Program-made: the position numbers and the translations under genes
Shown here: piece by piece, positions 5,890 through 24,763 of the stretch
Layout: each line of letters starts with the position of its first letter
Position numbering within the stretch: position 1 is the first letter of the stretch
The notes under the pieces: model-generated
Told to the model about the DNA's origin: nothing
Databases searched by the model: none
What the model saw: the letters and a program-made list of their open reading frames with translations, nothing else
DNA from: Rickettsiales bacterium
GTDB lineage: Bacteria > Pseudomonadota > Alphaproteobacteria > Rickettsiales > UBA3002
Length of the DNA stretch: 50,918 bases
Direction: 5' to 3'
Assembly (NCBI GenBank): GCA_044341105.1
Contig: JBIISI010000003.1
Coordinates: 1 to 50,918, forward strand

Positions 5890-5908
5890 AAATGGTGACT
5901 CTACGGGA
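5890..5908. repeat. att site (distal copy of tRNA-Glu 3' end)
   Basis: aaatggtgac-tctacggga equals 24686-24705 aaatggtgacctctacggga with a 1-nt deletion. Confidence 0.9.
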
Positions 5909-5968
5909 GGCACACCGGTCAATTAACGTATTGATTAGCACACCCAATTTGTCAACGGCGATCTTCGC

Positions 5969-5987
5969 ATGCCCCTAATTGTGCCCC
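5969..5987 (+). repeat. Integrase arm-type site (left)
   Basis: atgcccctaattgtgcccc, 18/19 identical to 24557-24575; inverted half-site taggggtat at 6026-6034. Confidence 0.7.
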
Positions 5988-6032
5988 TATTGCTGAATTG
6001 ACGTTTTTGGCTTGTTTCAGGCATATAGGGGT

Positions 6033-6638
6033 ATGAGCAAAACACCGCCGCCTAAAAAACGCAAAACCCGCCGAATGGTCGCACCATCGCTTTTTGTTCC
6101 GGTAACAAAAGAGGACAAGACATCAATGCCGTTTACCGGGGTGGAGCATGGCGAGCCAGAAGAAACCAAGCGAGAAAAGTTAGAACGGGAGCAACTAAAG
6201 CGAAAGCAGCTAGTCAGTCAATCAGCCCAAACCAATACCGAGGATATACTAAGATGGCTTCGGCAGGAAATGAATCGCCAAGAATACTCCTACGCGAAAC
6301 TTTCGGCTCTCACTGGAGTATCCGAACCAGCGATAAAATCTTGGTATAGCAAAAGCCCTACATCGCGACGGAGCCCCGGCCTTGTAGAAGTCATGAAATG
6401 TCTTCAGGCCTTAAATTTTATTCTCATCCCATCGGATGGTGTTCTGTATTTAGACGATACAGGGGACAGGTCTTGCAACCCCATCGATTGGTTTAGACAC
6501 CATCTTGCGAACCGTGAATTGCAGGATAGTGCCACAACACGAAAAACTAGCGTCTCTGAAGAGCATGCGCGCTCGAATGAAAACGCACGTCGCGCGCTTA
6601 AAATGAAAACGCATAAACCGCGCAGCCGGATATCTTAA
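6033..6638 (+). CDS. XRE/Cro-like HTH DNA-binding protein
   Basis: LRQEMNRQEYSYAKLSALTGVSEPAIKSW...SPGLVEVMKCLQALN resembles an HTH; ATG at 6033. Confidence 0.65.
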   Translation: MSKTPPPKKRKTRRMVAPSLFVPVTKEDKTSMPFTGVEHGEPEETKREKLEREQLKRKQLVSQSAQTNTEDILRWLRQEMNRQEYSYAKLSALTGVSEPAIKSWYSKSPTSRRSPGLVEVMKCLQALNFILIPSDGVLYLDDTGDRSCNPIDWFRHHLANRELQDSATTRKTSVSEEHARSNENARRALKMKTHKPRSRIS

Positions 6639-6721
6639 TTGGTTACTTCTGTAACCTTCCGCTCGTCGTAGTCTTTCTGCACCTTCGTACGACCATCACA
6701 GTCGTAATTAACGGAGGACTC

Positions 6722-6955
6722 ATGCAACCACTAGAAAACAAGCCAACCGGTTACAGCAAATATATTCGGGCCAAGCAGGCTGCTGAATATCTCGGCATCC
6801 CACTCTCGACGTTCTACCAGCTAGTCTCACAGGGAGTTTTACCAAAAGCCTTCAAACTCACGGATCGTATTTCGCTTTATCGGCGGGCTGATCTGGATGC
6901 CGTTTTGGCAAACCGTAATGGGGCGAATGAAGCCCTATCTGCAACGCAACGGTAG
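6722..6955 (+). CDS. AlpA-family excisionase/regulator
   Basis: YIRAKQAAEYLGIPLSTFYQLVSQGVLPKAFKLTDRISLYRRADLD; GGAGG RBS. Confidence 0.85.
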   Translation: MQPLENKPTGYSKYIRAKQAAEYLGIPLSTFYQLVSQGVLPKAFKLTDRISLYRRADLDAVLANRNGANEALSATQR

Positions 6956-6966
6956 GGGAGGCGCAC

Positions 6967-9525
6967 GTGGCAAAAATTGTTTCAGAACATGCCGACGTTG
7001 TGTTGAACATCGCACGCAACAGCAACAATATCGATTTGGTGCATACAAGGCCCTACAACCCAACCGTAAGCGAGTTGTTTGAGAGGCTTTCCAAGCCAAA
7101 GATCGACACCATTACGCTAGCGGAATACCTCGACCTCTCCCCGAAAGAGCGTAACAAGCATAAATCCAGCGCGGGATGGATTACAGGCGGTCGCGTGAGG
7201 AAAAACTACCGCTGCAAGAAGCACATGGGGAAAATCAGGCAGCTAATGCTCGATATCGACGGAGCGACACCCGAGTTGATCGAGGAGATTATCAGCGGCG
7301 ACACCGCATTCTCCAAGTTTGAGTGGTTTATGCACACCACGCGCTCGCATGATCCCGCCAAACCTCGCGTCCGGATTTACGTGCCGCTTCGTACCGCAGT
7401 TCCGCTAGATATCTTCGAGGCATTCGCGCGGATTACATGCACATTGCTTGCAACAGACGCACAAGCCGTCATGGATGCGGTGGACCCGGCCAGTTTTTCC
7501 GTAGCACAGCTCATGTACTTACCGACCATCAGCCGGGATCAAGAGTTCAAAAAATACCACAATAAGGGCGAGTTACTCGATTACCAAGACATCCTCGACC
7601 AATATGATGGGGACTACACCAATTTCGCTACGCTACCGCACTCATCCAAACGCGACAAAAAACATCGGACTCACATGCCCGATGGCAGCTATAAAGACCC
7701 ACGCGATAAGGAAGGTGTTGTTGGCGCATTCTGCCGGAAATGGAACATTGAGCAGGCCATGCGCGAATTCATTCCTGATGTTTATGAGCAAGACATCGGC
7801 GGTGACAGCAGCCGGTATCGTTACACAGGCTCCGACAGCATGGGCGGCGCTGTAGTGCTGGATGATGGGCAGTATCTCTATTCACATCATATCAATGCAG
7901 ACCCATGCGGCGGCGAATCCGTCAACGCCTTCGACATGGTACGTTTGCATGAATTTGGCGAACTGGATGATGATACTGATCCAGAAACCAAGATGACCAA
8001 GCTGCCATCCTACCAAGCGATGATCGAAATGCTCATGGAAATTCCTGAATTTCGTGACCAACTAGCGGAAGACCGTGTGGCGTTGGACGAATCTATCATT
8101 GACGCTTTCAAAGAACTCGACATCGAAGAAAAGGAAGATGAAGACAAAAAAATCCCGGCAGTCATGCGTTGGATGAATGAGCGGCATGCCGTGGTTGTAA
8201 ATGATGGCAACACAATCATTCTGAATTTTAAAAATGCAGAAGGCCATCTGACCTACAGCACCGCTCAAGACCTGCATATGCTCTACGCGAATAGAACTGC
8301 CACGCTGAAGACCGGAAAGCTTATGACCTACGACCGTTACTGGATGGAACACCCGAAGCGCCGTCAATATATCGGGGTGGATTTTAACCCCAATGGCGTA
8401 CCAGACGGATGGCTGAATACCTATCCCGGCTTTCCGCTTGCGCCGCGTGCAGGCGGAAACTTCAAGCGCATCCGTTGGCATCTTAAACATGTAATCTGCA
8501 ACGGTGATAAAGTGCTTTTCAAGGCGTTGATTCAGTGGTTGGCGCATATGATGCAAAAACCCGGAGAAAAACCCGGCTTTGCAGTGGTGCTCATCAGCGA
8601 AGGAAAAGGCACCGGGAAGGACACCGTAGGCCATATCGTGCACCAGATGCTGGGGCGCATGTGGACTCAAGTGCTCACCCCACGGCAGTTGCTTGGCAAC
8701 TTCAATGCGCACCTTAGCGATTGCCTGTTCATCCAAGTATCGGAGGCTATTTACCCTAAGGATAAGTCGGCGCAGGGGATGCTACAAAACCTGATTACCG
8801 AGCCGTTTCTGCCGATTGAGCGCAAGGGGAAGGATATCATGCGAGTCAGTAGTTTCCAACGCATCATGATTACCTCGAACCACCACCATGTCGTTCCAGC
8901 AAGTGCAGACGAACGGCGGTATTTCGTGCTGACCGTATCGGATCGGAAAAAACAGAACGCGGACTATTTTGACGCATTGTACGCAGAAATCGAAGATGTG
9001 AAGTCGATCCAAGCATTCATCGATTACCTCATGCATGTTGATATTTCCGACTTCGATCCGCGCAATCCGCCGAAGACCAACGCCCTTACCGAACAAAAGC
9101 TGGCGAACCTGACCGGGGTTGCCGAATGGTGGTACTACAGGCTTCAGGTGGGCCATATTCCCGGCTTCAGCAAATCCGGCAGTGGCGATGGGGGTTGCTG
9201 GGATGAGCCGGACATGTCGGAGTGGCAAGAGGGTTCTATTTCGGGCAAGAAACAAGCCCTGTACGATGATTATTGCGACCGTAATCGCCGCCGCCGCTAC
9301 GATGGCGACCCGGTAACGCCCGCAATCTTTTGGCGCGAAATGAAGAAGATGATGCCAGAGATCAAAACGGGGACCGCCCGGCAAGGGAAGACCTTTTACA
9401 AGAAGGCGACTATCGAGGGCCTTGATACCTGCCGGGCAGCATTCGCCAAGTTTATTGGCGGCAGCGTTGCGTGGGAGGGTGAACCCATGCCATGTCGCGA
9501 GATTGACCTAGAAGACCTGATTTAG
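6967..9525 (+). CDS. Primase/polymerase-helicase (AEP-like N-terminus, DUF5906/SF3-type ATPase C-terminus)
   Basis: MLDIDG, HTTRSH..PRVRIYVPL, YSHH..DPC..NAFDMVRLH; Walker A EGKGTGKD, GNFNAHL, IERKGKD, ITSNH, DERRYFV. Confidence 0.85.
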   Translation: MAKIVSEHADVVLNIARNSNNIDLVHTRPYNPTVSELFERLSKPKIDTITLAEYLDLSPKERNKHKSSAGWITGGRVRKNYRCKKHMGKIRQLMLDIDGATPELIEEIISGDTAFSKFEWFMHTTRSHDPAKPRVRIYVPLRTAVPLDIFEAFARITCTLLATDAQAVMDAVDPASFSVAQLMYLPTISRDQEFKKYHNKGELLDYQDILDQYDGDYTNFATLPHSSKRDKKHRTHMPDGSYKDPRDKEGVVGAFCRKWNIEQAMREFIPDVYEQDIGGDSSRYRYTGSDSMGGAVVLDDGQYLYSHHINADPCGGESVNAFDMVRLHEFGELDDDTDPETKMTKLPSYQAMIEMLMEIPEFRDQLAEDRVALDESIIDAFKELDIEEKEDEDKKIPAVMRWMNERHAVVVNDGNTIILNFKNAEGHLTYSTAQDLHMLYANRTATLKTGKLMTYDRYWMEHPKRRQYIGVDFNPNGVPDGWLNTYPGFPLAPRAGGNFKRIRWHLKHVICNGDKVLFKALIQWLAHMMQKPGEKPGFAVVLISEGKGTGKDTVGHIVHQMLGRMWTQVLTPRQLLGNFNAHLSDCLFIQVSEAIYPKDKSAQGMLQNLITEPFLPIERKGKDIMRVSSFQRIMITSNHHHVVPASADERRYFVLTVSDRKKQNADYFDALYAEIEDVKSIQAFIDYLMHVDISDFDPRNPPKTNALTEQKLANLTGVAEWWYYRLQVGHIPGFSKSGSGDGGCWDEPDMSEWQEGSISGKKQALYDDYCDRNRRRRYDGDPVTPAIFWREMKKMMPEIKTGTARQGKTFYKKATIEGLDTCRAAFAKFIGGSVAWEGEPMPCREIDLEDLI

Positions 9526-9552
9526 CCACTATCCTGTCGAGGTGGCTGAAGC

Positions 9553-9780
9553 GTGCCGTAGTCGTGAAGCCCCTAAACCCAGCAATTACGGCGCGTGACC
9601 GTGTAACGCAATGTAGCAGCAGGCATCGCAGCACCCCCTCATCCCTTTAACACTCGACTACAATATTTTTACCAACTCTCAAAACCCAGCACACCCAGCA
9701 CTACGGCACAACCAACCCCAACCGCAGCTTTACGCGCCCCCCCACTGTCGTTACAGCGACTACACAAGGTAGGCACTACC
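9553..9780. repeat. Putative replication origin: convergent short repeats
   Basis: gtgccgtagt (9553) / actacggcac (9700) perfect IR; gtagtcg (9558) vs cgactac (9655, 9757); tgtaacg (9602) vs cgttaca (9749); aaacccagca twice. Confidence 0.45.
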
Positions 9781-9790
9781 ACCCCGCTGT

Positions 9791-9837
9791 GGGTCCTTCC
9801 CCAGAAGTTGAGCCCCGTGGGACGCGCGGAGCCCCGG
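9791..9837 (+). other. Putative cos packaging site (cosQ/cosN-like)
   Basis: GGGTCCT (lambda cosQ sequence) at 9791-9797, then a GC-rich tract gtgggacgcgcggagccccgg whose core lies about 21-23 nt downstream. Confidence 0.4.
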
Positions 9838-9970
9838 TGAAAGGCAGTTGTCATAAATTGCCTATTACACATGAGGTTGCCAATTCCTGCTTTCGCAATG
9901 AGTGGATTGGCAGGTGGCGGGTTTTTGACTATGGTGCAGCCAATGTTGACTGACGGGGGAGCCAAGGTTG

Positions 9971-11296
9971 GTGAATCAGCAAAAAAATAAAGGCGGGAAC
10001 GGTCCATATGTTGCGACCCTGCTGCTATGCTTGCTGCTTTTCTCAGCGCGCGTAGTGGGCCAGTTGGTGCAGCATATTTCTCCCGTCGCGTTTCTCCCTC
10101 CGTTCGAGGCATGGCAAGGCAGCGGCATGCCGTATAGCGCGCTTCTCACCATGCAGCTGGTGATTGTTGCCGCCGCCTCATTCATCATCACCCGCCTTGC
10201 GCACGGTCGCATCACCCCCAACCCAAGAACCGCAGCATGGCTTTACTGGCTCGGCATCCCGTATTTTATTGCCATGCTGGTGCGCCTGCTCCTTGGCCTT
10301 GGGCCGCTGCATGAGGCCGCATGGTTCGCCGCCAGCATTCCGGCTTTTTTCCATATAGTGCTGGCCAGCATGGTGCTCACGCTGGCGCATTATCACTCAT
10401 CACCTGCGCAGCGGCTACGGTTCCGCCAAGCGATGCGCTGGGCGGTCTATCCGGGGATCATGGGGCTGGTGGTGCTCGCCTATTATGGCCTCATCGCACA
10501 AGGGGTCAGCCCGGTCATCAGCAGCTATGTCAGCGGGCTGTTAGCAGCCATCACCATTACCATCGCTGAAATCCTTCTGCCCTACCGCGCCGAGTGGCGA
10601 CCTACGCGGCATGACATCCTGCATGACAGCATTTTCCTGTTGCTCATACAAGTGGTGCTGCCCAATGCGCTGACCCTGCTAGCGGCCATCGGCCTGCAAC
10701 ATTGGGTAGTGCAAAGCGGCATCGCGGCGGATGCATGGTGGCCGCACCATTACCCGATATGGGCACAGATGCTGCTCATGATGTTTGCTGCCGATTTCCT
10801 GCGCTACTGGTTGCACCGCGCGTTTCATACCTACCACCGCCTATGGCCGATCCATGCCGTGCATCATTCGGTGCAGAAACTCTACTGGCTGAATGTGGGG
10901 CGCTTTCACCCGCTCGACAAATCGCTCCAGTTCCTTGCCGATGTGTTGCCTTTCATTTTCCTCGGCGTGTCGCAAGAGGTGCTTACGCTCTATTTCGTCG
11001 TTTACTCGGTGAAGGGCTTCTTCCAGCACAGCAATGTTGATGTGCGGCTGGGCTGGCTGAACTATCTTATCAGCGGCCCGGAATTGCACCGCTGGCACCA
11101 CTCCAAAATCATCCGCGAATCGAACAGCAACTACGGCAACAATATCAGCGTGTGGGACTGGCTGTTCGGCACCTTCCATTACCCCAAGGCACAAGAAGTG
11201 GGCGATCTCGGCCTGTTCAACCGCCACTACCCGATGGCTTTCCTGAGCCAGATGCGCGCGCCGTTCGTACGCGGGCTGGATAAGGAGGCGAAATGA
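9971..11296 (+). CDS. Sterol desaturase/fatty acid hydroxylase family protein with extra N-terminal membrane domain
   Basis: His boxes HRAFH, HAVHH, FQHSN, HRWHH; NYGNNISVWDWLFGT. Start codon uncertain (9968 TTG or 9971 GTG). Confidence 0.9.
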   Translation: MNQQKNKGGNGPYVATLLLCLLLFSARVVGQLVQHISPVAFLPPFEAWQGSGMPYSALLTMQLVIVAAASFIITRLAHGRITPNPRTAAWLYWLGIPYFIAMLVRLLLGLGPLHEAAWFAASIPAFFHIVLASMVLTLAHYHSSPAQRLRFRQAMRWAVYPGIMGLVVLAYYGLIAQGVSPVISSYVSGLLAAITITIAEILLPYRAEWRPTRHDILHDSIFLLLIQVVLPNALTLLAAIGLQHWVVQSGIAADAWWPHHYPIWAQMLLMMFAADFLRYWLHRAFHTYHRLWPIHAVHHSVQKLYWLNVGRFHPLDKSLQFLADVLPFIFLGVSQEVLTLYFVVYSVKGFFQHSNVDVRLGWLNYLISGPELHRWHHSKIIRESNSNYGNNISVWDWLFGTFHYPKAQEVGDLGLFNRHYPMAFLSQMRAPFVRGLDKEAK

Positions 11297-12801
11297 GCCG
11301 CCTTCAACAGCTGCTGGTACGGGTCCATATGGCCAAAATAGCGCTTGGTCCGTGGGCGCGTCTGAAGCAAAGCGCACGTAATTCGGAACGCACGCAGGCA
11401 GCATTGCTGCAACGTATCCTGCACGCCAACCGCACCACGCAGTTCGGTCAAACACATCAGTTCGCTTCGCTTGGCGATACCGCAGCCTACCGTGAAGCCG
11501 TCCCCATCCATGATTATGAAGCGTTGCGCCCTTTCATCGACCGCCAGATGCAACATGGCGAACACGCGCTAACGGTAGCGCCAGTATGCCATTATTTGCT
11601 GACCAGCGGCACGACCGGCGAGCCTAAGCGTATCCCACTAACCGAAGATGCGATGCGACATCTGCGCGATTGCCAGCGGCTAGCAGCCTACAGCCATTTC
11701 CGCGAAGCCCCGTTGCTATTCTCCGGCAAGCTACTCTCTATCACCGGCGCAGGCACGGAAGGGCAGATGCCCAACGACACCCCTTATGGCTGCCTATCCG
11801 GCGTACTGTTCGATGCCATGACCCGCTTCATGAAACGCCGCGCCATCCCCTCAGCTGCTATCGGACTGGAATATCGCTACGAAGACATCGCCCGCGAGGC
11901 TGCGGCAGCACCCGATATCACCGCTGCCATTACCGCCAACCCTTCCAGCTTCCTGCGCCTGAAAGAGATCATGCTGCGCGAAGGGCTGATACCGGCAGGG
12001 CGTTTACTCGGCGATCTGTGGCCCAACCTTCACGCCATCATCACATGGACACACGGTAACTGCGCCACCTACCTACCCGCATTGCAGCGTGAGTTCCCCA
12101 ACACTGCCATTCTGGAAGCAGGATATCTCGCCAGCGAAATCTATGGCACTATTCCCGTAGGTGGCGGGCGCTGCGTTCCCAGCCTTGAGCATACCTTTTT
12201 TGAGTTCATCGCGGTCGATGCATGGGAGAGTGGAAGCGGGGAAACCCAACTGCTGCACACGCTGGAGCAAGGCCACCGCTATTACGTCATCACCACGACC
12301 GAGAGCGGCCTTTACCGCTATTTCATGCATGACATCGTGGAAGTGGACGGCATGTTCGAGAACACGCCCTGCCTACGTTTTGTGCAGAAGGGAAAGGGCG
12401 TGACCAGCCTCACCGGTGAGAAGCTTTACGAGAGCCAATTGCTGCACGCACTCAAAACCATTCGGGGAGATGACGCGAACGCGCCCTTCTTCCTCGCCGT
12501 CGCTCATAACGATCCAGCCCATTACCGGCTCTATATCGAGAGCGCGCACACTGCTCCTGACATGGCCACACAGCTGGATGATGCGCTGGGCGCACTAAAT
12601 ATCGAATACAAGGCAAAGCGCGATAGCGGGCGGCTGCATCCGCTTTCCATCGCCTTCCTGAGCAATGGCGCAGGCGATGCTTACCGCCAGCACTGTATTG
12701 CACAGGGCCAACGCGATGCCCAATGGAAGCTGGTGCGGCTACAATACGCCCACGAATGCCCCTTCGATTTCACTCCCTTCCTGCGTAAGGATGCGTCATG
12801 A
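11293..12801 (+). CDS. GH3-family acyl acid-amido synthetase
   Basis: AVPIHDYEALRPFI, LTSGTTGEPKRIP, YLASE, TTESGLYRYFMHD, GEKLYE; ATGA overlap. Confidence 0.9.
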   Translation: MSRLQQLLVRVHMAKIALGPWARLKQSARNSERTQAALLQRILHANRTTQFGQTHQFASLGDTAAYREAVPIHDYEALRPFIDRQMQHGEHALTVAPVCHYLLTSGTTGEPKRIPLTEDAMRHLRDCQRLAAYSHFREAPLLFSGKLLSITGAGTEGQMPNDTPYGCLSGVLFDAMTRFMKRRAIPSAAIGLEYRYEDIAREAAAAPDITAAITANPSSFLRLKEIMLREGLIPAGRLLGDLWPNLHAIITWTHGNCATYLPALQREFPNTAILEAGYLASEIYGTIPVGGGRCVPSLEHTFFEFIAVDAWESGSGETQLLHTLEQGHRYYVITTTESGLYRYFMHDIVEVDGMFENTPCLRFVQKGKGVTSLTGEKLYESQLLHALKTIRGDDANAPFFLAVAHNDPAHYRLYIESAHTAPDMATQLDDALGALNIEYKAKRDSGRLHPLSIAFLSNGAGDAYRQHCIAQGQRDAQWKLVRLQYAHECPFDFTPFLRKDAS

Positions 12802-13892
12802 CCCTGCAACTCACCATGGCCCCGTTGCATATCCCCTTTCGCGCAGCATTCCGGCATGCAGGCGCGGAACGCGCGGAAACAGAAACGGTTATCGTTACCG
12901 CCCGCCGTGGTGGATTGGAAGGCGTAGGCGAAGGGTGCCCGCGCAGCTATGTCAGCGGCGAGTCCATCGCCAGTGCGTTGGCATTTTTTGAACAACATCA
13001 CGCTACGATCTCGCAATTATCGACACTGGATAACGTTCGCCACTTTACCCAACAGTTCCAGCAAGAGATTGATGCAAACCCGGCAGCATGGTGCGCGGTG
13101 GAACTTGCCTTGCTCGACCTGCTTGGCAAGGAGCAGCAGCTTCCTATCGAGGCGTTGCTTTCCCTACCGCCGATAACCCAGCCATGCCACTATTCCGCCG
13201 TGCTCAGCGCGGGCTCGGCAGATGGCTTCGCCAAGCAACTGGCGCAATATCAGGCGCAGGGCTTTACGCAATATAAAATCAAACTCTCCGGCGACGCCGC
13301 GCTCGATGCCGCTTATGTTGCGCATCTACGTGCAGCAAACATCCCCCTATCGCACGTGCGGGCCGATGCCAATCGTCTCTGGCCTGATGCCATATCCGCC
13401 ATCGCTCACCTCGCTGCATTGGATTACCCATTCTGGGCGCTTGAAGACCCGCTACATGCCATTAATACGGACGCACTTACCGCCATCGTCCACGCCCGCG
13501 ATTGCCGCATCATCATCGATGAGCATTTCCTACGCCTCGACCAGTTCGCTACGCTTGCTCCCCATGGCCCATGGATCATCAATCTCCGCATCTCGAAAAT
13601 GGGTGGTTTGCTGCGCAGCATGGCGATCATCCAGCACGCGGCTAATGCAGGTATTCCACTCATCATCGGCGCGCAAGTTGGCGAAACCAGTATCCTCACG
13701 CGTGCCGCCATTTGTGTTGCACAGGCAGCTGGAACTTCCCTGCTAGCCCAAGAAGGCGCGTTCGGAAACTTACTACTAGCAAACGATCCTTGCGACCCGT
13801 CACTCACGTTCGGCCCGCGCGGCATTCTCTCACCGCATCCCGCTTTTAGTACGCCGGGAATGGGCATAAATTGGCAACCGGAGGCCCTATGA
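12798..13892 (+). CDS. Enolase-superfamily enzyme (MLE/epimerase-like subgroup)
   Basis: GVGEGCPR, ELALLDL, KIK, DAN, LEDP, IIDE, RISKMGG, GAQVGET; ATGA overlap. Confidence 0.88.
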   Translation: MTLQLTMAPLHIPFRAAFRHAGAERAETETVIVTARRGGLEGVGEGCPRSYVSGESIASALAFFEQHHATISQLSTLDNVRHFTQQFQQEIDANPAAWCAVELALLDLLGKEQQLPIEALLSLPPITQPCHYSAVLSAGSADGFAKQLAQYQAQGFTQYKIKLSGDAALDAAYVAHLRAANIPLSHVRADANRLWPDAISAIAHLAALDYPFWALEDPLHAINTDALTAIVHARDCRIIIDEHFLRLDQFATLAPHGPWIINLRISKMGGLLRSMAIIQHAANAGIPLIIGAQVGETSILTRAAICVAQAAGTSLLAQEGAFGNLLLANDPCDPSLTFGPRGILSPHPAFSTPGMGINWQPEAL

Positions 13893-14545
13893 AAAAGTTC
13901 AGTTTTCTTCACCACTCTTTCATTGCTATGGCGCTGCTCTTACTTGCTGCATGTGGTGATGCGCCGCGCGGCCCGGCATTTTCCTATGATGGCAAAGAGT
14001 TGGAGCTTAAGCTGGAAGGCGGCAAATATCTTACCTTCACCGATGGCCCCTGCGACCAAGGATTTGACGGATGCGTCATTCACCAATTCAGAGGCACCTT
14101 TGCCAGAGACCAGTTTTATTTCGTTCATCACCAATACTACGAGGGCGGCAAGTACATGCTGTATTCTTATAAAAGTGGCAACAGAACGATTATCTACGGC
14201 GAGCCACATCTTTCTCCGCAAGAGAACCTCATTGCAACGGCAATGGGTGATGAAATGAATGACGATGGCACTGGCATACGACTTTTTGAAATCGCTAACG
14301 GCGAAGCAAAAGAACTCTTCCATTATAAGCCAAACGGCTACGCCCTTTACCGCTTTGACAAATGGATCAACAATAATGAGGCCGCCATTGAACTATACAC
14401 GATGTGCAGAGATAATGGGCGCAACGATTCGCTCACCATGCCGGTGCACCTAAGAAACACCCCAACCGGTTGGCAACTAGACCAAGGCATCGGCGAAGCG
14501 TGCATTCAATCCACGCGGCAACCTAAGCCTAGCGTAAGCCCGTAA
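13889..14545 (+). CDS. Lipoprotein, unknown function
   Basis: MKKFSFLHHSFIAMALLLLAAC lipobox; GGAGG RBS; ATGA overlap with enolase stop. Confidence 0.75.
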   Translation: MKKFSFLHHSFIAMALLLLAACGDAPRGPAFSYDGKELELKLEGGKYLTFTDGPCDQGFDGCVIHQFRGTFARDQFYFVHHQYYEGGKYMLYSYKSGNRTIIYGEPHLSPQENLIATAMGDEMNDDGTGIRLFEIANGEAKELFHYKPNGYALYRFDKWINNNEAAIELYTMCRDNGRNDSLTMPVHLRNTPTGWQLDQGIGEACIQSTRQPKPSVSP

Positions 14546-16604: not shown

Positions 16605-16605
16605 C

Positions 16606-17010
16606 CTACGGCTCCTGCGCTTCGATAAATTTCTCGGATGTGTTCGATCCAAATCCATGGAGGTAAACGCTGGCCTTTGCCTGTACCCCGATACGGCCTT
16701 GTTGCTCTATAACCTCCAATGGACAAACATCGTGCGGCGATTGCGCAACATATACTTTATCGCCCAAAGCCAGCTTCACACGGCGCTTTCCCTTATCTTC
16801 CGCGATAGGGCATTGGTCAGAATTAGTCTTATTGTTGAGCCTGAAACAGCTGCCTTGCCAATTTTCGATAAAGTGGATTTCTATACCATCTGGAACGGCT
16901 TCAACCTTCTCTATCCAACATATGTTCCCCGCCCATACGGTTGCAGGAAAGAGGCCGAACGCAATAGTATATCCAATACGGTGCCAGATGCTAATCACTG
17001 ATGGCTCCAC
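16606..17010 (-). CDS. Small exported Cys-containing protein
   Basis: Signal-like TIAFGLFPATVWA followed by GNICW; 4 Cys; overlaps upstream stop. Confidence 0.6.
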   Translation of the reverse strand: MEPSVISIWHRIGYTIAFGLFPATVWAGNICWIEKVEAVPDGIEIHFIENWQGSCFRLNNKTNSDQCPIAEDKGKRRVKLALGDKVYVAQSPHDVCPLEVIEQQGRIGVQAKASVYLHGFGSNTSEKFIEAQEP

Positions 17011-17549
17011 AAATAAACGGTTATGGCATTTTCGGCGCTAATATCGCGCACGCAGCGAAATTGATCTTCTATCCCTTGCAACTGTACGAGGTCGGCGCTC
17101 CGATAGCCCCAACGGGTGGTAACATAAGCGCATTCCTGCGCCCCTTTCTTTTGCAGCGAGCCCAACGTCGTTTGCAGTGCATCACGAATTCTTTTGTCAT
17201 CGGTACGCTGTGCGGTTTGTTTCGTTAGCTTTTTTGCCTGTTCTTTATACAGCTCGTCCCACCAGATGGATTCACGCTCCATACAATTTCTACTGTGCGA
17301 ACCAACGGCAATATCGGCCAGCGCATTATCGTATGCGGACACGTCGCTAATACACGCCTTTGTGAATTTGCCGATGCAAGTTTGGTAGAGGGTGTATTTA
17401 TCATCCGCCGATGCAAGGCAATAATCCAAGAACTGCTTTCTTACCGGGTCAGCGGCATGGGCGATCCCTGCCATCCCGATAATCGCCCAACACATCATCA
17501 GCAAAGCTAGGTTCTTTGTGAGCATCGGAATCTTTTTTGTCGCTACCAT
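16995..17549 (-). CDS. Exported protein resembling LprI (DUF1311) lysozyme inhibitors
   Basis: Signal peptide AHA; CIG..T..C ... C..RE..WWD pattern, helical, multiple Cys. Confidence 0.55.
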   Translation of the reverse strand: MVATKKIPMLTKNLALLMMCWAIIGMAGIAHAADPVRKQFLDYCLASADDKYTLYQTCIGKFTKACISDVSAYDNALADIAVGSHSRNCMERESIWWDELYKEQAKKLTKQTAQRTDDKRIRDALQTTLGSLQKKGAQECAYVTTRWGYRSADLVQLQGIEDQFRCVRDISAENAITVYLWSHQ

Positions 17550-17558
17550 ACACTCACA

Positions 17559-18322
17559 CTAAGACAGAGGTTTCTTTGGAGTTCGCGCATATTTATCTGC
17601 CGTCTCTGGCCGTAATTGCAACCCCACCATTTTTTCATTCTCGAAAACATACGGACATACGGGCGCTTTGTAGAACTGCTCAAAGATTTCTTCTGCCACG
17701 TCAATTTGCTCGTCCGTCATACGCTTTTCGAGTTCTTCCTGTTCGGCACGTGTACCGAACATCTTGATCGGCACCATCGACGCATGGACATGCGCCAAAA
17801 TTACATTCGGTTCGACCAACGCCCGCTCCTCAGCGGTGATATCGGGAGATGGTAACCCACCATACAGTGCTGCCAGATAATGAGAGGAAAGTATTGGGCA
17901 CGATCACACGCCATACGGTGCATCCAATAAAGCGATTTAGCGTAATCCTGCTTAAACCCATCGCGCCATTTCATTTTTGGCGGCGGCCCATTCGGTAAGG
18001 TGTGTTGAGGCGGTATCTTTTGCGCATACTGCTGCGCCAACTCAATTTGGGCAAAGGGCTCACCCGCCTCTGCGGCTTTGAATAAGTAAATATTTGATTC
18101 TTCCTCGGTCATGCCGCCTTTGTCGCGGATGATACCGAAATGGTCCCCTAAAAGTCTCATCGCGGATATATCCCCGCTATCCGCTGCTGCTTTAATAGTC
18201 TCAAAACTATCTTTATAGCTCACCGTCGATGGCGGAAATGGCTTAAAGCGCGGATTTGGTTTGGGCGAGCATGCTGCCATTGCTAGGCAGCAGACAAGTA
18301 GCATTGCATTAACAACCCGCAT
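17559..18322 (-). pseudogene. Sel1-repeat lipoprotein split by a frameshift near 17885
   Basis: Lipobox AMAAC; Sel1 motifs AADSGDISAMRLLG, KAAEAGEPFAQIELA, QDYAKSLYW; second frame continues SHYLAALYGG...EKRMTDEQIDVAEE. Confidence 0.65.
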
Positions 18323-18439
18323 AAGAACCCTCCGCGCGCATCATACATTTTTTCTTACGCGGCGCAGCTACAGATTGCGGTTATCGAATAATATACATGC
18401 CGGTCGCGAGAAAATACGCTAATGCATTAGTGTTAACAC

Positions 18440-20188
18440 ATGGGAGTCAGCATGGTGCAGAGCACCGAGATTGTAGCTAATGCCACAGCAGGAACGCTGC
18501 ACCAACTCATCCTCGATGAGTATGAGCGCGGCATCGATGAGGGTGATGCAGCGTTTGTTGCCCTTACGGTTGAGCTGCATAACGCTGGAGCTATTGACCT
18601 TCTAGCGGCGCTGAGCCCCACTGCATTGGCAGACGCGCAGGGGTTCCAGTTTTTTACCCTTCAACAATTCTATTGCGCGGCTATTCCGAAAATCGAGGCT
18701 GAGCCGAAGCCTTTAATGACTGTGGTTTCAACCCTAGTGAAAGCGGCTGGAAATGACATGGCTTCTTACATGCCCAACGCTGCGTACCGGGATTGGTGCT
18801 CACTAAAACCAGAGCGTCCTGACCTCGTTATGAATTTAATCACCGCTGGAGACGCAGAAGCGATGGAATACCTGTCCCTGACATTAGAGGGTGGCGCTGT
18901 TTTCGATAAACGTAGATTCATGGAACAGGCCATCACTTACTTGCGAGATGCGCCAGAGTTACGCCAAGCCGCATTAACCGCGCTCGCCCGAATCGATAGT
19001 AGCGGCAATGTTGATCTTGCTCATACAGCATTAGCACTGATGGCGGAACACGTCACTGAGCAAGCTGACGATATGCTGCGCACCCATGTCTTAGCGGCGA
19101 CTCTTGGCCTATATTCGCGATCACCCGCAGAGATGCATGATGAAGCCTTGGCCCTAATTACACAGACCATCCAGCATCGCGGCGACGGTGTTCTACACCA
19201 CTGCGCGTCTGCATTGTTTGAGCGTAAAAATTTAACTGATGCGATGGTGGAATTACTCATAACAACACTAGAAGACGTGAATCCTGCTCACCTCGGCACG
19301 ATTAATTCGCTCGATGTTGCGCTGTCAGAACTTATAAAAGCGGGCAAGGGTGCGCGTGTTATTGGTTACTTAGAGAAAGTTTTTCGTGCCCACCCTGATG
19401 CGCTCAGCTTCAAGCAATTCGATAGTGTGGGTCACACGTTAACGCGGGAACAACAACCGCTCGCCACCGATACAACCGTGCGGTGGCTGATGAGTGGCGA
19501 TGCAAACCTTGCCTCCCATATCTCTGACCTTATGAGTGCGTCAACGCAGCAACCTACGATATTCACTGTTGATATCGCGCCCTACGCTTTCAGTGATGTT
19601 GAGGCCATTTTCCTTGCCCGTAAAGCCATTGGCTGGTTCTTCTTCCACCCTATCACCGCAGCATCACTCATTGTCTGCGTATTGCGCACTGTAAACGGCG
19701 ATACAGCTGAAACCATTGGCGATCTTCTTTTTGATCCGCTGCTGCTTAGTTATTCGGGAGAACTACGGAACTACCTGCAAGAGCGAACTAACGATCCAAG
19801 TGAAACTGCTGCGCCTCAAATCCAGCAAGCCATTGATAAGTTGGATGCATATCTAAACAATCTGCGTGCTGCCGGATTTATTGCCGAACTCGAACCTTCC
19901 GAACGTGAACGATTGATCGAACGGCAGAAGAATACTGAGCGCATGCGTCAAATTCAAAAACAGGCAGAGCAAAGCTCGGTGTTACTGTCACTCGTATCCA
20001 AGTCCATCATTCTCCATGGCAATGGCTCTATTGGGTATCGCTACGATATGGATGGAAAGCCCCACCGCCATAGCATGAAAATGGGTACTTATAGCTCCGT
20101 GTGGGAAGCGCCACGCTTAGAGGCTATCGACCCGTTCGGGCTTGATATGCAATTACGCGTTTTCCGCGCTGAGAGGCTCGTCGCATGA
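18440..20188 (+). CDS. Large alpha-helical (HEAT/ARM-like) hypothetical protein
   Basis: 582 aa Leu/Ala-rich amphipathic helices; ATGA overlap with the next gene. Confidence 0.8.
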   Translation: MGVSMVQSTEIVANATAGTLHQLILDEYERGIDEGDAAFVALTVELHNAGAIDLLAALSPTALADAQGFQFFTLQQFYCAAIPKIEAEPKPLMTVVSTLVKAAGNDMASYMPNAAYRDWCSLKPERPDLVMNLITAGDAEAMEYLSLTLEGGAVFDKRRFMEQAITYLRDAPELRQAALTALARIDSSGNVDLAHTALALMAEHVTEQADDMLRTHVLAATLGLYSRSPAEMHDEALALITQTIQHRGDGVLHHCASALFERKNLTDAMVELLITTLEDVNPAHLGTINSLDVALSELIKAGKGARVIGYLEKVFRAHPDALSFKQFDSVGHTLTREQQPLATDTTVRWLMSGDANLASHISDLMSASTQQPTIFTVDIAPYAFSDVEAIFLARKAIGWFFFHPITAASLIVCVLRTVNGDTAETIGDLLFDPLLLSYSGELRNYLQERTNDPSETAAPQIQQAIDKLDAYLNNLRAAGFIAELEPSERERLIERQKNTERMRQIQKQAEQSSVLLSLVSKSIILHGNGSIGYRYDMDGKPHRHSMKMGTYSSVWEAPRLEAIDPFGLDMQLRVFRAERLVA

Positions 20189-21939
20189 AGCTGGTCATCA
20201 GGGAATATATAGCAGCCCTTAAAGAGCGGGATGAGCTTGATGCCATGCTCCCCAATCTCCTTACTGAGATGGGTTTCACGGTTTATTCGCGCCCTAGCCG
20301 GGGCACCCGCCAATATGGTGTTGATATTGCCGCAGTAGGTCAAACTGCCGATGGGGAGCGCAAAGTGTATTTGTTCTCGGTAAAGCAAGGTGACCTGAAT
20401 CGCCAAGACTGGGACGGCACACCTCAGGCCCTGCGCTCATCGTTGAATGAAATCCGCGATGTTTACATCCCAACGCATATTCCCGCCGAGTATCGGAATC
20501 TTAAGGTTGTTATTTGTTTGGTGTTTGGCGGTGATATCAAAGAGCCGGTTCAACTGGAAGTACGTGGATACATCAACACCAATACTACAGCCAACGTCGC
20601 ATATGAAGAGTGGAATGGCGACCGCCTTGCAGATTTAGTTCTAAGCGGCATTTTGCGCGAAGAAATGTTCACTGGTCCAATGCGTGCGCATCTTCGTAAA
20701 GCCGCCGCAATGGTGGAAGAACCTGATATTGCATACACACATTTCCGCAGTTTGGTTGACGCTATCATCAAGCGCCCTACAAAAAAGAAGGGCGAGGATA
20801 TCTCCAAAGTGCGCGAAATAAACATGTGCCTTTGGGTGCTTTTTACTTGGGCGCGTGAAGCGAATAATGTTGAAGCACCCTACCGCGCAGGCGAATACGC
20901 AATCTTACGTGCGTGGGAATTGCTGAAGAATTTAATCGACGGCAATGGCCGTACAGCTACGGATGCAGGGATTGCCTTCAATGAACTTGTGCAACTTCAT
21001 TTCACTATATGGGATACGCTAGCTGAAAAGATTTTGCCGCATGTAGATAAACGCCACGCCATCTCAGCGGCTGTTGGCGCATTCTCCAGCTTGGATATCA
21101 ACCTAAAAACACATGACATTTTAGGGCGCATTGCCATGCGGGGCTTGTGGCATGCGTGGGCCAAAGGCCAAAGCAACCTGCCAGAACCGCTAGAAGGTTC
21201 TGAGGGCGATTTAAGCACCATTACGATGCAGTTATATCAGCTGATTAACAATAACCCCGCATTGCATGCACCGATTTGTGATGAGCAGGCTATCGACATC
21301 GCTCTGGCATTAATGCTGCTTGGGGTGCATGGCGGGCTCTCCAGCACCATCACTTCATGGTTGGATGCGCTCGTGGACCGGGCCCATTTCAACTACCGTA
21401 GGCATGGCAAATACCCAACGTGCAAGACTTCGTACTGGGATTTGGTCGAGCATCCGGCAGAAAAGACCGATGAGTACCGCAAAGAGGTAACCGGGGGCAG
21501 CATTCTCTATCCGATGCTCGCGTTGTGGGCAGGTGCCTATGGCGGAAACGAAGCACTCAGCGATCTGGCAGAGTTCAAAAAAGAGCAGTTAGCACATTGT
21601 AATTTCCAACTATGGTTCCCCGATAATGACAGTGAGGCAGGGTTGTATCTTGGAAGCGACCGGCATGGGGATATGTTATCCGATATTCCCGCAGATGCCG
21701 CAGGCACCAAAACACGGGAATATATAGAAGCAGAATGCACCCTGAATACTCATTTCGGGCAATTATCGGCGATTCGACTCGGGCATTGGCCTATCGTATT
21801 AATGGCCTGCCGACATTACCGTTTGCCTGTGCCGCCACAAATATGGATGGGGCTCCTACCGGCGCTGCCCGCTGCCACGGACAACCCCGCGACCAACAGC
21901 ACGCCCAACACCCAAGAAAGTGCGACGTTGCAGGACTGA
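20185..21939 (+). CDS. Protein with N-terminal Mrr-like PD-(D/E)xK endonuclease domain and helical C-terminus
   Basis: ELDAMLPNLLTEMGF...RQYGVDIAAVG...YLFSVKQG, EEWNGDRLA. Confidence 0.75.
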   Translation: MKLVIREYIAALKERDELDAMLPNLLTEMGFTVYSRPSRGTRQYGVDIAAVGQTADGERKVYLFSVKQGDLNRQDWDGTPQALRSSLNEIRDVYIPTHIPAEYRNLKVVICLVFGGDIKEPVQLEVRGYINTNTTANVAYEEWNGDRLADLVLSGILREEMFTGPMRAHLRKAAAMVEEPDIAYTHFRSLVDAIIKRPTKKKGEDISKVREINMCLWVLFTWAREANNVEAPYRAGEYAILRAWELLKNLIDGNGRTATDAGIAFNELVQLHFTIWDTLAEKILPHVDKRHAISAAVGAFSSLDINLKTHDILGRIAMRGLWHAWAKGQSNLPEPLEGSEGDLSTITMQLYQLINNNPALHAPICDEQAIDIALALMLLGVHGGLSSTITSWLDALVDRAHFNYRRHGKYPTCKTSYWDLVEHPAEKTDEYRKEVTGGSILYPMLALWAGAYGGNEALSDLAEFKKEQLAHCNFQLWFPDNDSEAGLYLGSDRHGDMLSDIPADAAGTKTREYIEAECTLNTHFGQLSAIRLGHWPIVLMACRHYRLPVPPQIWMGLLPALPAATDNPATNSTPNTQESATLQD

Positions 21940-21973
21940 AGGCTGTTCTACAACTCGGAAACATCCCTTTTTC

Positions 21974-22002
21974 TTTACTTTTTTAACGGACTTCAGTAGC
22001 TT
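21974..22002 (+). promoter_or_regulatory. Sigma70-like promoter
   Basis: TTTACT-N17-TAGCTT just upstream of the hairpin at 22009. Confidence 0.45.
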
Positions 22003-22008
22003 GATATC

Positions 22009-22158
22009 AGGTGCTGAACACACCTTAGATTTAGCGTTTTGCCGACACGACAGTCGGGACTCCTACCGTATGGTCGGGAGCCCTTCTGCCATACAACAGC
22101 CTTCGGGTGAAAGCAGTCGGGCACGACTAAATCCGTGTGTTCAAACTCCCGATCACCA
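22009..22158 (+). ncRNA. C4/CI-like antisense RNA / Ash-type leader
   Basis: Hairpin AGGTG-CTGAACA-CACCT; 22015-22036 is complementary to 22124-22143; ggtcgggag pairs with ctcccgatc; peptide MVGSPSAIQQPSGE from 22070. Confidence 0.5.
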
Positions 22159-22210
22159 TCCCATACTAGCGAGGGATGCTGGTCCGTTTAACGACGAAAC
22201 CGGGGATGCT

Positions 22211-22672
22211 ATGAACCAACGAATCTTGTTACCGCTTCTAAGTGCAACGCTTCTCGCAGCATGCGCAACAGAACCACCGTTTGAGGGTACACCCACCGTT
22301 CACATCTGGGCCACTCCAACACAAGTAGCCAGTCACTTAGCACAACACTGCATCCAAGGCAGAGGGCGTATCGTTGCGCAGAGCAATTACCACTTTGTGT
22401 GTGCTGTACCCATGGATGGGTCGATGAACAGCCTCGTCTTACGGGCACTGGTAACAGAGCACTATTCGTCCAACCCAGAAATTAATGTCCAATCGAGTTG
22501 GGCAGCGCAAGGTAACGGTGTTCGAGTATCCTCCATTTCGTGGATGGAGCACCAAAATGCATTCGGCAAAACGACCAAGAACTACCTAGATCAACCTGCG
22601 AGCAAACGGAGCCTGCAAGCTGGCCTTGAAAAGATGAAGGCCACTATAGAAGCGCAGAACGCAGCGCGATAG
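22211..22672 (+). CDS. Lipoprotein, unknown function
   Basis: MNQRILLPLLSATLLAAC lipobox; GGGGA RBS. Confidence 0.75.
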   Translation: MNQRILLPLLSATLLAACATEPPFEGTPTVHIWATPTQVASHLAQHCIQGRGRIVAQSNYHFVCAVPMDGSMNSLVLRALVTEHYSSNPEINVQSSWAAQGNGVRVSSISWMEHQNAFGKTTKNYLDQPASKRSLQAGLEKMKATIEAQNAAR

Positions 22673-22684
22673 GCAGGAGGCAAT

Positions 22685-23062
22685 ATGGCTCGAATAAAAA
22701 TACGCGCTGGCGACTTTATCACAATATCTCCCAGCCATTCATACGGTGGCAGAAATTTTCACTTAGCGACTGAGGCACGAGAATGGAAGCTCAAGAACAC
22801 CGAGACCATCCCTGTGACCGAGTTAGAATATGTGGAACTGGCGAGTGAAGAGAATGTGAAGAAGCTGGGCGGCACCATCGGCTGGGGTGCTGCTGGAGCA
22901 GCCCTGCTAGGGCCAGCAGGCTTACTCGCAGGTTTATTGCTCGGTGGTAAAAAGAAAGAAGTGACATTCATCGCAAAATTCAGGGATGGCCGTAAATTCA
23001 TAGGAACAACAGACCCGAAAACATGGGCAGACATTCAAGGCGGCGCGCTGCATTTGCTCTAA
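22685..23062 (+). CDS. Small protein with glycine-zipper membrane segment
   Basis: GGTIGWGAAGAALLGPAGLLAGLLLGG; AGGAGG RBS. Confidence 0.75.
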   Translation: MARIKIRAGDFITISPSHSYGGRNFHLATEAREWKLKNTETIPVTELEYVELASEENVKKLGGTIGWGAAGAALLGPAGLLAGLLLGGKKKEVTFIAKFRDGRKFIGTTDPKTWADIQGGALHLL

Positions 23063-23071
23063 GTATTAGCG

Positions 23072-23338
23072 TTATTTCGCTTCGTGGGCTTTCTTTTCTT
23101 GCCGCACGCGCCGATCATTCTCGCGTATTACGCGCAGCGTACGATTCTGCTCGGCGCGCTGGATATCATGGCGGCGCTGCCGCGTTTCAATTCGCTGTTG
23201 AAGATAGTCGGGCTCATTTTCGATGTGAACCGTAACAGACTGTGCCCCGCCCCAGTTCTCGTCGCCCCATGCATACGCTTGCCCTGCCATGAGGAGCATG
23301 CCGATTACGCAGTAAACAATATTACGCATGTGCTGCAC
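23072..23338 (-). CDS. Small exported hypothetical protein
   Basis: MRNIVYCVIGMLLMAGQAYA signal peptide; overlaps integrase stop. Confidence 0.55.
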   Translation of the reverse strand: MQHMRNIVYCVIGMLLMAGQAYAWGDENWGGAQSVTVHIENEPDYLQQRIETRQRRHDIQRAEQNRTLRVIRENDRRVRQEKKAHEAK

Positions 23339-24530
23339 CTTTCACTGCTTGTTCAACGTAATCGCCCCACCACTGCATCATCTCACGGCGTTCTGGGAGG
23401 TACTCCGCGTGGTTATAGGCGCTGCGGACTTGATCGCGTTCGGCGTGGGCTAGTTGGCGTTCGATGACATCGGGGCGGTGGTTATGTTCATTCAGGATGG
23501 TGGATGCAGTGGCGCGGAAGCCGTGGGCGGTGGCTTTGCCTTTATAGCCCATGATGTCGAGGGCTTTAAGGAAGGTGTTTTCGCTCATCATCTTGCGCGG
23601 GTTTTGCTGGCTGGGGAAGATGTAGCCAGAATAGCTATCGGCGGTGAGTTCATGCAGTTGTTTGAGGACGGCGATGCTTTGCGTGGAGAGCGGGACGATA
23701 TGCTGCTCTTTCATCTTCATGCGCTCGGCAGGAATGCGCCACTGGGCCTTATCCCAGTCGATCTCGGACCAATGCGCGCCGCGAATCTCGCCACTACGCA
23801 CGAAGGTCAGCACGAGAAACTCGAAGGCAAGCCGGGTGAGCGTGGTGCCGTTATAGTCTTGCTCGTAGCGGCTCAGCTTTTTCAGGAAGCCCGGAAGGTC
23901 TTTCTCGCGTAGGTGAGCGTAGTTCTCACTAATGACGGGTGCAAGCGCACCGCGCAAGTCTTGGCAGATGTCGCGTTCGGCACGGCCAGTGGCGATGGCG
24001 TAGCGGAATACCTGCGAGCAAACCTGCATGATGCGATGCGCGACATCGTGCGCGCCGCGCTTTTCAACTTTACGGACCGCAGCTAGCAACTCCGGCGCAG
24101 TAATGGCTTTAATGGGTCGCCCACCGAGCAGCGGGAAGATATTTGCCTCTAGCCGCTTGAGGATGGTCGCCGCATGCTTAACCTTCCATGTATGGTAACG
24201 CTGCTCGTGCCATTCGCGGGCGATACTCTCGAAACTATTCTCGTAATGTGTGAGGCGCTCGATCTTCTCCAACCGCTTTACTTCTACAGGATTGTGCCCC
24301 TCGGCTAACTGTTTTTTAGCAAGGCGGGCCTTCTCGCGGGCTTCTTGCAAAGACACATTCGGGTAAGTACCGAAGGAAATACGCTTCTCATCGCCGTTGA
24401 AATAGTATTTCAGCCGCCAGTATTTGCCGCCGCGCGCGGTGACTTCAAGGTATAGCCCATGGCCATCCGATAGTTTTCGCGTGATGGTGGTACAGGTGGC
24501 GTTCTTACACGCCGTGTTGGTCAGCTTCAT
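23322..24530 (-). CDS. P4-type tyrosine integrase with arm-DNA-binding domain
   Basis: LSDGHGLYL..GKYWRLKY, GTYPNVSLQEAR; catalytic R (VRSGE), HGFR, QLAH, YNHAEY. Confidence 0.97.
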   Translation of the reverse strand: MKLTNTACKNATCTTITRKLSDGHGLYLEVTARGGKYWRLKYYFNGDEKRISFGTYPNVSLQEAREKARLAKKQLAEGHNPVEVKRLEKIERLTHYENSFESIAREWHEQRYHTWKVKHAATILKRLEANIFPLLGGRPIKAITAPELLAAVRKVEKRGAHDVAHRIMQVCSQVFRYAIATGRAERDICQDLRGALAPVISENYAHLREKDLPGFLKKLSRYEQDYNGTTLTRLAFEFLVLTFVRSGEIRGAHWSEIDWDKAQWRIPAERMKMKEQHIVPLSTQSIAVLKQLHELTADSYSGYIFPSQQNPRKMMSENTFLKALDIMGYKGKATAHGFRATASTILNEHNHRPDVIERQLAHAERDQVRSAYNHAEYLPERREMMQWWGDYVEQAVKGAAHA

Positions 24531-24556
24531 TGGGGGTAACTTCCCGGTTCAAAATG

Positions 24557-24575
24557 ATGCCCCTAAATGTGCCCC
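24557..24575 (+). repeat. Integrase arm-type site (right)
   Basis: atgcccctaaatgtgcccc, matches 5969-5987; inverted tgggggtaa at 24531. Confidence 0.7.
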
Positions 24576-24685
24576 CTTTTGGTTTGGATGCCATTGGAGC
24601 CACTCAGAGTCTATCAGAGAAATATACCAGAAAATCAGCCGTTTTTGAAGGATTATTGTAGAAAACGGGAGTCCCTCAGAAGGGA

Positions 24686-24705
24686 AAATGGTGACCTCTA
24701 CGGGA
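24686..24705. repeat. att site overlapping tRNA-Glu 3' end
   Basis: Repeat of 5890-5908. Confidence 0.9.
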
Positions 24706-24763
24706 ATCGAACCCGTGTTACCTCCGTGAAAGGGAGGTGTCCTAACCGCTAGACGAAGAGGCC
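24689..24763 (-). tRNA. tRNA-Glu (TTC)
   Basis: GGCCTCTTCGTCTAGCGGTTAGGACACCTCCCTTTCACGGAGGTAACACGGGTTCGATTCCCGTAGAGGTCACCA: cloverleaf, T-loop, CCA. Confidence 0.97.

Follow-up and report, generated by a model that had tools for sequence, protein, structure and literature searches.

What kind of element occupies the 3' end of the tRNA-Glu gene in an uncultured lake bacterium of the Rickettsiales, and by what route could it reach another cell? We asked this of the 18.8-kb element that spans positions 5890 to 24705 of a 50,918-nt stretch of DNA, hereafter the window, which is the entire contig C48 of genome G000 (an assembly of 2.02 Mb in 127 contigs, 91% complete). The DNA of the window is present in lake-water metagenome runs. 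The earlier note on this locus had described a complete, minimal phage satellite without structural genes that depends wholly on a helper phage. Our analysis leads to a different wording: with a probability of about three in four, the element is an intact, site-specific, self-replicating and not self-transmissible island of the integrase-AlpA-primase/helicase type, inserted in the 3' end of tRNA-Glu and carrying the Olokun anti-phage system together with envelope-related cargo.

The insertion site can be read directly. The sole tRNA gene found by ARAGORN in the window is tRNA-Glu(ttc), on the minus strand at 24689-24763; Rfam scores it at 63.9 bits and recognises nothing else in the window. 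The right attachment site, attR (AAATGGTGACCTCTACGGGA, 24686-24705, plus strand), has a 20-nt core made of 17 nt of the intact tRNA 3' end and 3 further nt. The left site, attL (AAATGGTGAC-TCTACGGGA, 5890-5908, plus strand), is a 19-nt copy of the tRNA 3' end from which one C is missing. Their local alignment score of 36 compares with a maximum of 32 over 200 shuffles, and no further copy of the core with two edits or fewer occurs in the 2.02-Mb assembly. Inside these sites lie two copies of the arm-type repeat TGCCCCTAAWTGTGCCCC, both on the plus strand, one on the P' side (5970-5987) and the other on the P side (24558-24575), directly upstream of the integrase start. With up to two mismatches allowed, the window contains no third match, and chance alone would give none (100 shuffles). 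Each repeat consists of two GCCCCTA-like units about 11 nt apart, or about one helical turn, and such a pair is what an integrase bearing an N-terminal arm-binding domain would be expected to recognise. The two att copies, one with a 1-nt deletion, and the paired arm repeats had already been pointed out in the earlier note, and both observations stand.

The backbone genes are full length. The integrase is a P4-type tyrosine recombinase of 402 aa (23322-24530, minus strand) with the Arm-DNA-bind_3, Phage_int_M and Phage_integrase domains; it covers positions 8-400 of the 413 of profile PRK09692, in agreement with its description as intact. At the opposite end of the element, the regulatory and replication operon begins with a gene for a 208-aa protein (6012-6638, plus strand; likely start ATG 6033), a candidate Cro/CI-type helix-turn-helix (HTH) regulator. 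Its HTH match, at residues 87-152, is weak; leads from atlas features and structure point to the HTH_3 families, and its single relative found is 70% identical. The second gene (6722-6955, plus strand) encodes an AlpA-type or MerR-type excisionase-regulator, recognised by HTH_17 (PF12728; 38.9 bits for a cut-off of 27, E value 1e-09), by the excisionase model TIGR01764, whose threshold it passed, and by phrog_66; it falls below the cut-off of Phage_AlpA (PF05930), with 17 bits against 21. The third (6967-9525, plus strand) encodes an 852-aa primase/helicase that carries DUF5906 (PF19263) and matches the PHROG primase/helicase families phrog_256, 9765 and 1156. Residues 25-435 or so match PHROG 256 and 9765, residues 542-651 match DUF5906, and residues 519-693 match PDB chains named 'Primase' (6k9c, 6k9e). 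These matches point to a primase-polymerase-like N half and a C half that is a DUF5906 superfamily 3 helicase. The order HTH-AlpA-primase/helicase proposed from the letters alone is borne out.

Strands and coordinates also define the form that the element would take as a circle. As the earlier note had stated, the integrase start (24530, minus strand) and the start of the first operon gene (6012, plus strand) would then face apart, separated by an interval of about 280 bp that contains the core and both arm pairs. We propose the following scenario. The P4-type integrase would bind the paired arm sites and the 19/20-nt core and, together with the AlpA-type excisionase-regulator, excise an 18.8-kb circle. 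In this circle the int gene and the HTH-alpA-primase operon would diverge across an attP control region of about 280 bp, and the primase/helicase would replicate the molecule. The payload, that is the OloA/OloB nuclease system, an aminolipid-type gene cluster and several exported proteins and lipoproteins, would benefit the host. Passage from cell to cell would be borrowed, since no machinery for it appears to be encoded by the element. What the data show directly is the anatomy of the element, its intact genes, the identity of its cargo and its integrated state; excision, replication and transfer are steps that we infer.

Several results weigh against such a mobile island. The deletion in attL could impair recombination, and no origin-like iterons were found near the primase gene. 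Among 147 scored matches in a set of 5.8 billion proteins, only three other sequences align over 83-100% of the primase length, two of them 82-83% identical and the third 35%, so that there is little comparative evidence of this element moving. Of 162 loci with a relative of the integrase, 80 were kept; none of the 80 has a homologue of AlpA, primase or cargo within 10 kb (E value of 1e-5 or less), and the integrase and the primase are not a conserved pair. Moreover, contigs from four lake metagenome runs (X1-X4), compared with positions 5300-25200 of the window, contained neither the 24705-5890 joint of attP nor an attB joint, and showed no excess in copy number. They show the integrated form: in X1, which may be the source sample, a 7048-nt contig crosses attL and a 3193-nt contig crosses attR, with a depth of 7.1-8.9 over the element and its flanks, except for the last bin, which is inflated by the tRNAs of other organisms. 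The same sequence is present in X2, at low depth, and among the loose contig ends listed at the tRNA none runs into the left flank. Since contigs suppress rare variants, the absence of the excised form carries little weight either way.

One could imagine, on the basis of the attL deletion and of the integrated form as the only one seen, that the element no longer moves and is what is left of a prophage or island whose integration and replication genes survived decay while cargo accumulated. Both halves of the primase are indeed related to phage-sized contigs and to named phages: for the N half, the similarity is to VapE-type primases on Firmicute contigs of phage size in IMG/VR, and for the C half it is to primases of Rhizobium, Ralstonia and Pseudomonas phages (28-37% identity). 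However, every backbone gene is full length against its profiles, both ends retain conserved arm sites, neither pseudogenes nor insertion sequences were seen in the element, and it occupies the tRNA-proximal, most recent position of the locus. A remnant is therefore an improbable explanation, and the intact island remains our preferred reading.

How such an island could travel is less clear. No PHROG family for head, packaging, connector, tail or lysis functions was found in its 19 proteins, nor in 18 further small or unknown open reading frames (ORFs) at E values of up to 0.1, and the 19 proteins contain no Pfam family of relaxases or type IV secretion systems (T4SS). The Pfam and PHROG scans therefore uphold the view that capsid, terminase, relaxase and T4SS genes are lacking. 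The element thus has neither the capsid, terminase, tail and lysis genes of a prophage nor the relaxase or T4SS of an integrative and conjugative element (ICE) or an integrative mobilisable element.

A first route is packaging by a helper phage, which would induce excision and replication through AlpA and whose capsids would take up the 18.8-kb DNA either singly or in concatemeric form. The backbone is compatible with this: int, AlpA and primase are common to the satellite P4 and to the phage-inducible chromosomal islands (PICI), as the earlier note stated, and also to the phage-inducible chromosomal minimalist islands (PICMI). Like P4, the element combines a P4-type integrase, AlpA and a fused primase/helicase. 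The components of P4-like satellites include the psu-delta-sid operon and epsilon (PMC10085698). No such family was found in the Pfam/PHROG scans of the element, which thus differs from P4 in lacking psu, delta, sid and epsilon, and also in having a primase of another family arrangement. From the PICI set it carries the integrase (PF00589 and PF13356), the AlpA-type regulator (PF12728) and the primase (DUF5906). The components that serve PICI packaging and capsid redirection are named terS, ppi and rpp. For the remaining two core components of PICI, no head or packaging family emerged from the Pfam/PHROG scans, SatelliteFinder's own profiles not being used. The likeness is therefore limited to exactly int, alpA and pri-rep, without the two hijacking and packaging components, which is the combination that the SatelliteFinder authors call 'Type C PICI' and which holds three of the five core genes (PMC10085698). 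This class is unvalidated; the more than 6000 such elements found were excluded on the grounds that they might be defective PICI, mobile elements of another sort or aggregates that arose by chance (PMC10085698).

One of the closest parallels is with the PICMI of Vibrionaceae, modelled as int (PF00589), AlpA (PF05930 or PF12728), a primase with DUF3987 or DUF5906, and fis (PMC10803314). The three gene families PF00589, PF12728 and PF19263 are all present here, and the element resembles PICMI in its DUF5906-type primase, in the lack of capsid-remodelling and packaging genes and in its accessory defence cargo. PICMI do not require capsid-remodelling genes, and satellites in general are known to carry defence systems (PMC10085698; PMC13586616). 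The differences are substantial in their turn. PICMI lie downstream of fis and are about 6 kb long with six genes, whereas the element lies at tRNA-Glu, not beside fis, is three times the size of PICMI115 at 18.8 kb and belongs to an alphaproteobacterial host. Its int gene is about 14 kb from alpA-primase, at the opposite end when integrated, unlike in PICMI. Helper dependence is demonstrated for PICMI and is only a proposal for the element.

Other observations bear on helper packaging as well. Two genes beside int belong to phage-borne PHROG families without assigned function: a lipoprotein gene (22211-22672, plus strand; phrog_3152, E value 2.6e-08) and a gene for a small glycine-rich membrane protein (22685-23062, plus strand; phrog_20920 and phrog_12025). 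Phage head and terminase genes, possibly those of helpers, are present in the genome. On the other hand, the Pfam/PHROG scans found no terS, cos/pac or capsid-interference gene, the metagenome contigs gave neither circle nor excess depth, and the gene set is treated as ambiguous by the SatelliteFinder authors themselves (PMC10085698). No close relative appeared in IMG/VR, where the best matches are 33-37% identical and come mostly from contigs of 35-88 kb, some being shorter. Furthermore, cargo-carrying tycheposons with the same set of modules were not found in phage fractions (bioRxiv 10.1101/2020.12.28.424599). The earlier note is right about the anatomy, in that the element looks intact, has both att sites and lacks structural genes, but the trio of int, AlpA and primase does not by itself define a satellite. 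We consider packaging by a helper phage, with a lifestyle of the PICMI kind, to be the leading single candidate for transfer, although a tentative one.

A second route is suggested by the closest integrase relative among the loci kept (L176), which is 70% identical and lies in a T4SS-bearing ICE, also at tRNA-Glu. The element could be an integrative mobilisable or tycheposon-like cargo element that excises and replicates itself and is moved by a conjugative system of the same cell acting on a cryptic oriT, or else in vesicles or through transformation, and whose successive integrations would build an additive island beside the tRNA. This is again a possibility that we hold with reserve, and so is the stepwise growth of the island that it entails. 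Two VirB4-type genes elsewhere in the genome are in line with it, but neither a relaxase nor a recognisable oriT was found in the element. The likeness to the cargo-carrying tycheposons of Prochlorococcus includes the tRNA target with its partial repeat, a tyrosine recombinase, an excisionase, a primase/helicase, cargo, and the tRNA-proximal position in a larger island. Such tycheposons were described as undetected in phage fractions and enriched in vesicles (bioRxiv 10.1101/2020.12.28.424599). In contrast with their nutrient-uptake cargo, the element carries defence and envelope genes, and its integrase is of the common P4 type (Arm-DNA-bind_3). The element fits the Type C PICI, PICMI-like and tycheposon-like descriptions in part and is a new member of a known, loosely defined class, that of the int-AlpA-primase elements, which may or may not be satellites.

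Candidate helper genes of either kind lie on other contigs, without link to the element. A portal-protease-HK97 capsid-connector cluster, with the GC content of the genome itself, is found on C109 and is possibly a gene transfer agent or a prophage. Terminase_6N genes are on C119 and C65, a gpA-type terminase is on C121, and the VirB4-type genes are on C17 and C54; a search of this 91%-complete genome for TerL_ATPase (PF03354) gave no match. Phage and conjugative helpers are both conceivable.

The surroundings of the element tell more about the locus. In six of the seven relatives examined, homologues of the genes from C61:6691 downward begin 0.1-3 kb from tRNA-Glu, which is why we take the tRNA-Glu region of G000 to be an insertion. 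C61 ends within a histidine kinase gene, of which it has the part from HAMP to the C terminus, and C48 opens with the N-terminal part of this kinase; the split kinase implies that the two contigs abut. About 31 kb therefore separates the native flank from tRNA-Glu in G000, comprising the 18.8-kb element and about 12.3 kb of distal genes. This distal stretch (window positions 1-5890 plus C61:~6900-13291) is low in GC and carries genes for an RND-type efflux system, an EptA-type phosphoethanolamine transferase and envelope lipids. No integrase was found in it, and its far edge has no recognisable att; a candidate third att copy at the native boundary on C61 was rejected, with an alignment score of 22 against a shuffle mean of 21.8. 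In tycheposon additive islands, newcomers integrate beside the tRNA and older material moves outward (bioRxiv 10.1101/2020.12.28.424599). The roughly 12 kb of low-GC genes distal to the element fit this picture, and may be older island material pushed outward.

Base composition sets the whole region apart. The GC content is about 0.50 in the 18.8-kb element, against 0.606 for the genome, and low values extend past attL (5890) to the window start, with 0.44-0.54 over positions 1-5890. Within the element, the stretch of 10-14 kb, which holds a lipid gene cluster, reaches 0.56-0.59 against about 0.50 in the remainder. Only 54 of the 948 2-kb windows across the genome fall below 0.54. From their translations, the genes at 1-5890 encode a sensor kinase, a response regulator, PssA, Psd, an EptA-type transferase, a diacylglycerol kinase and a 222-aa protein of unknown function, the only one of them submitted to a family scan.

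Cargo accounts for about 13 kb of the element, the amount expected from the earlier note, and its contents can now be named. The label 'minimal' does not survive this inventory, which includes a complete Olokun system. The oloA gene (18440-20188, plus strand; PADLOC PDLC03925, E value 2.9e-106, profile positions 8-594 of 596) and the oloB gene for the nuclease subunit (20185-21939, plus strand; PDLC03926, 3.8e-208, positions 1-554 of 556) are adjacent, full length and overlapping by 4 nt, as is required of Olokun. OloA is adaptin-like and OloB is a PD-(D/E)XK nuclease, and they form a 2:2 complex, according to a 2025 preprint (bioRxiv 10.1101/2025.07.10.664194).

Next to the replication operon lies a cluster of three genes in the same direction (9968-13892, plus strand). 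It encodes an OlsE-like membrane fatty-acid hydroxylase (9968-11296; FA_hydroxylase 7.7e-30; NF052566 OlsE, 178 bits, under cut-off), a GH3-family amido-synthetase that is distantly OlsH-like (11293-12801; GH3 N, M and C domains; NF052613, 96 bits, under cut-off) and a racemase or epimerase of the enolase superfamily (12798-13892; MR_MLE_N and MR_MLE_C; best NCBIfam match DgcA racemase, under cut-off). OlsH, the distant relative of the GH3 enzyme, is a lyso-ornithine-lipid synthetase. As all three proteins score under the NCBIfam cut-offs, they would have paralogous functions. We take them to form an aminolipid-type module for membrane lipids, perhaps even one that represents a novel pathway. 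Among the 151 genomes of the order that were searched, the GH3 gene turned up in G000 alone. A 22-nt unit occurs twice, with an 80% match, at 9925-9970, where it overlaps the hydroxylase gene at its annotated TTG start (9968); this two-copy repeat may be a regulatory site.

Between the lipid cluster and Olokun, seven genes on both strands (13871-18322) encode predicted exported proteins or lipoproteins without known family, as judged from signal peptides or lipoboxes read in the translations. One is on the plus strand (13871-14545) and the others are on the minus strand (14529-15635, 15632-16132, 16176-16658, 16606-17010, 16995-17549 and 17801-18322). None of the seven ORFs matches a Pfam, PHROG or PADLOC family. 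With the two phage-borne genes beside int, nine cargo ORFs in all have a signal peptide, a lipobox or a glycine-rich membrane segment. A single contig of run X2, with a depth of 2.6, has a 7-nt insertion at 16233, within the gene for a 160-aa exported protein (16176-16658, minus strand).

We then asked whether islands of this layout occur elsewhere. A single-protein search of genome contigs or metagenome contigs returned no close relative of the primase. The only distant genomic match over nearly the full primase length is in an alphaproteobacterial metagenome-assembled genome (L033, 9998-12458, 33% identity), and it seems to be interrupted, the open frame spanning only the first 390 residues or so. 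Within the order, primase relatives (E value of 1e-10 or less) are present in nine of 301 genomes, G000 included. The four contexts that were examined are all small integrase-bearing islands in which no structural gene was seen, and three of them have recognisable defence genes: int, HTH_17, PrimPol-DUF5906, SMODS and SLATT in G067 (L170); int, a regulator, PrimPol-PriCT-DUF5906 and Mrr_cat-nSTAND3 in G287 (L171); int, a 208-aa protein and a DUF5906 primase in G052; and HTH_17, AbiEii/AbiEi, int and a DUF5906 fragment in G080 (L173).

The integrase relatives lead to similar places. Among the 80 kept loci, five of the eight closest (58-70% identity) adjoin tRNA-Glu(ttc). Seven loci were annotated (77 ORFs), and in them the integrase belongs to elements of several kinds. 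Apart from the ICE of L176, they comprise three islands with the succession int, X gene, AlpA/HTH_17 gene and replication gene. These have a DUF5906 primase (L207), a PrimPol with a CBASS of the HORMA/TRIP13 type and a DUF6602 protein (L213), or an AAA_25 ATPase (L177). The integrases of L207 and L213 are 58-60% identical to that of the window and are also at tRNA-Glu. Of the remaining annotated loci, L179 is an element with a gpA-type terminase and SIR2/HerA, L210 has helicase genes together with an S24 repressor, and L183 combines a Toprim primase with DUF927. In pairwise comparisons, the X genes found ahead of alpA in the related islands proved not to be homologous to the 208-aa gene (best E value 0.077; best among all pairs 0.04).

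A genome of the same genus, G013, has a different 11.3-kb island at tRNA-Glu (L026, C6:68000-87999, locus 5936-17305), bounded by the tRNA and a 46-nt repeat of its 3' part. It encodes PrimPol/PriCT_1, DUF3987, an MmeI-type restriction-modification enzyme, a DnaD-like protein and Abi_2, with the integrase at the far end, and thus has the same end-to-end layout as the window element, built from different genes. The modules are freely recombined, and the layout of replication module, defence cargo and integrase at tRNA-Glu recurs. The earlier note had allowed that such backbones might occur only inside full prophages or ICEs. Comparable islands without structural genes exist, which speaks against it; the integrase subfamily, however, also serves an ICE, and the primase halves also occur in phage-sized contigs.

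These results reveal no new mechanism. They provide a well-bounded test case for the satellite status of 'Type C PICI'. We speculate that the freshwater, genome-streamlined Alphaproteobacteria might host a family of hitchhikers without structural genes, either satellites or vesicle-borne tycheposon-like elements, that ferry defence genes (Olokun, CBASS, MmeI, Abi) and envelope-remodelling genes from cell to cell at tRNA-Glu. Their integration and replication modules would lie at opposite ends and be joined, only in the excised circle, by a divergent attP control region of about 280 bp. If the element is mobile, the range of integrase-AlpA-primase islands, described mainly in enterobacteria, vibrios and marine cyanobacteria, would extend to an uncultured freshwater alphaproteobacterial lineage, and small-genome lake bacteria would gain Olokun defence bundled with envelope-modifying genes at a tRNA hotspot.

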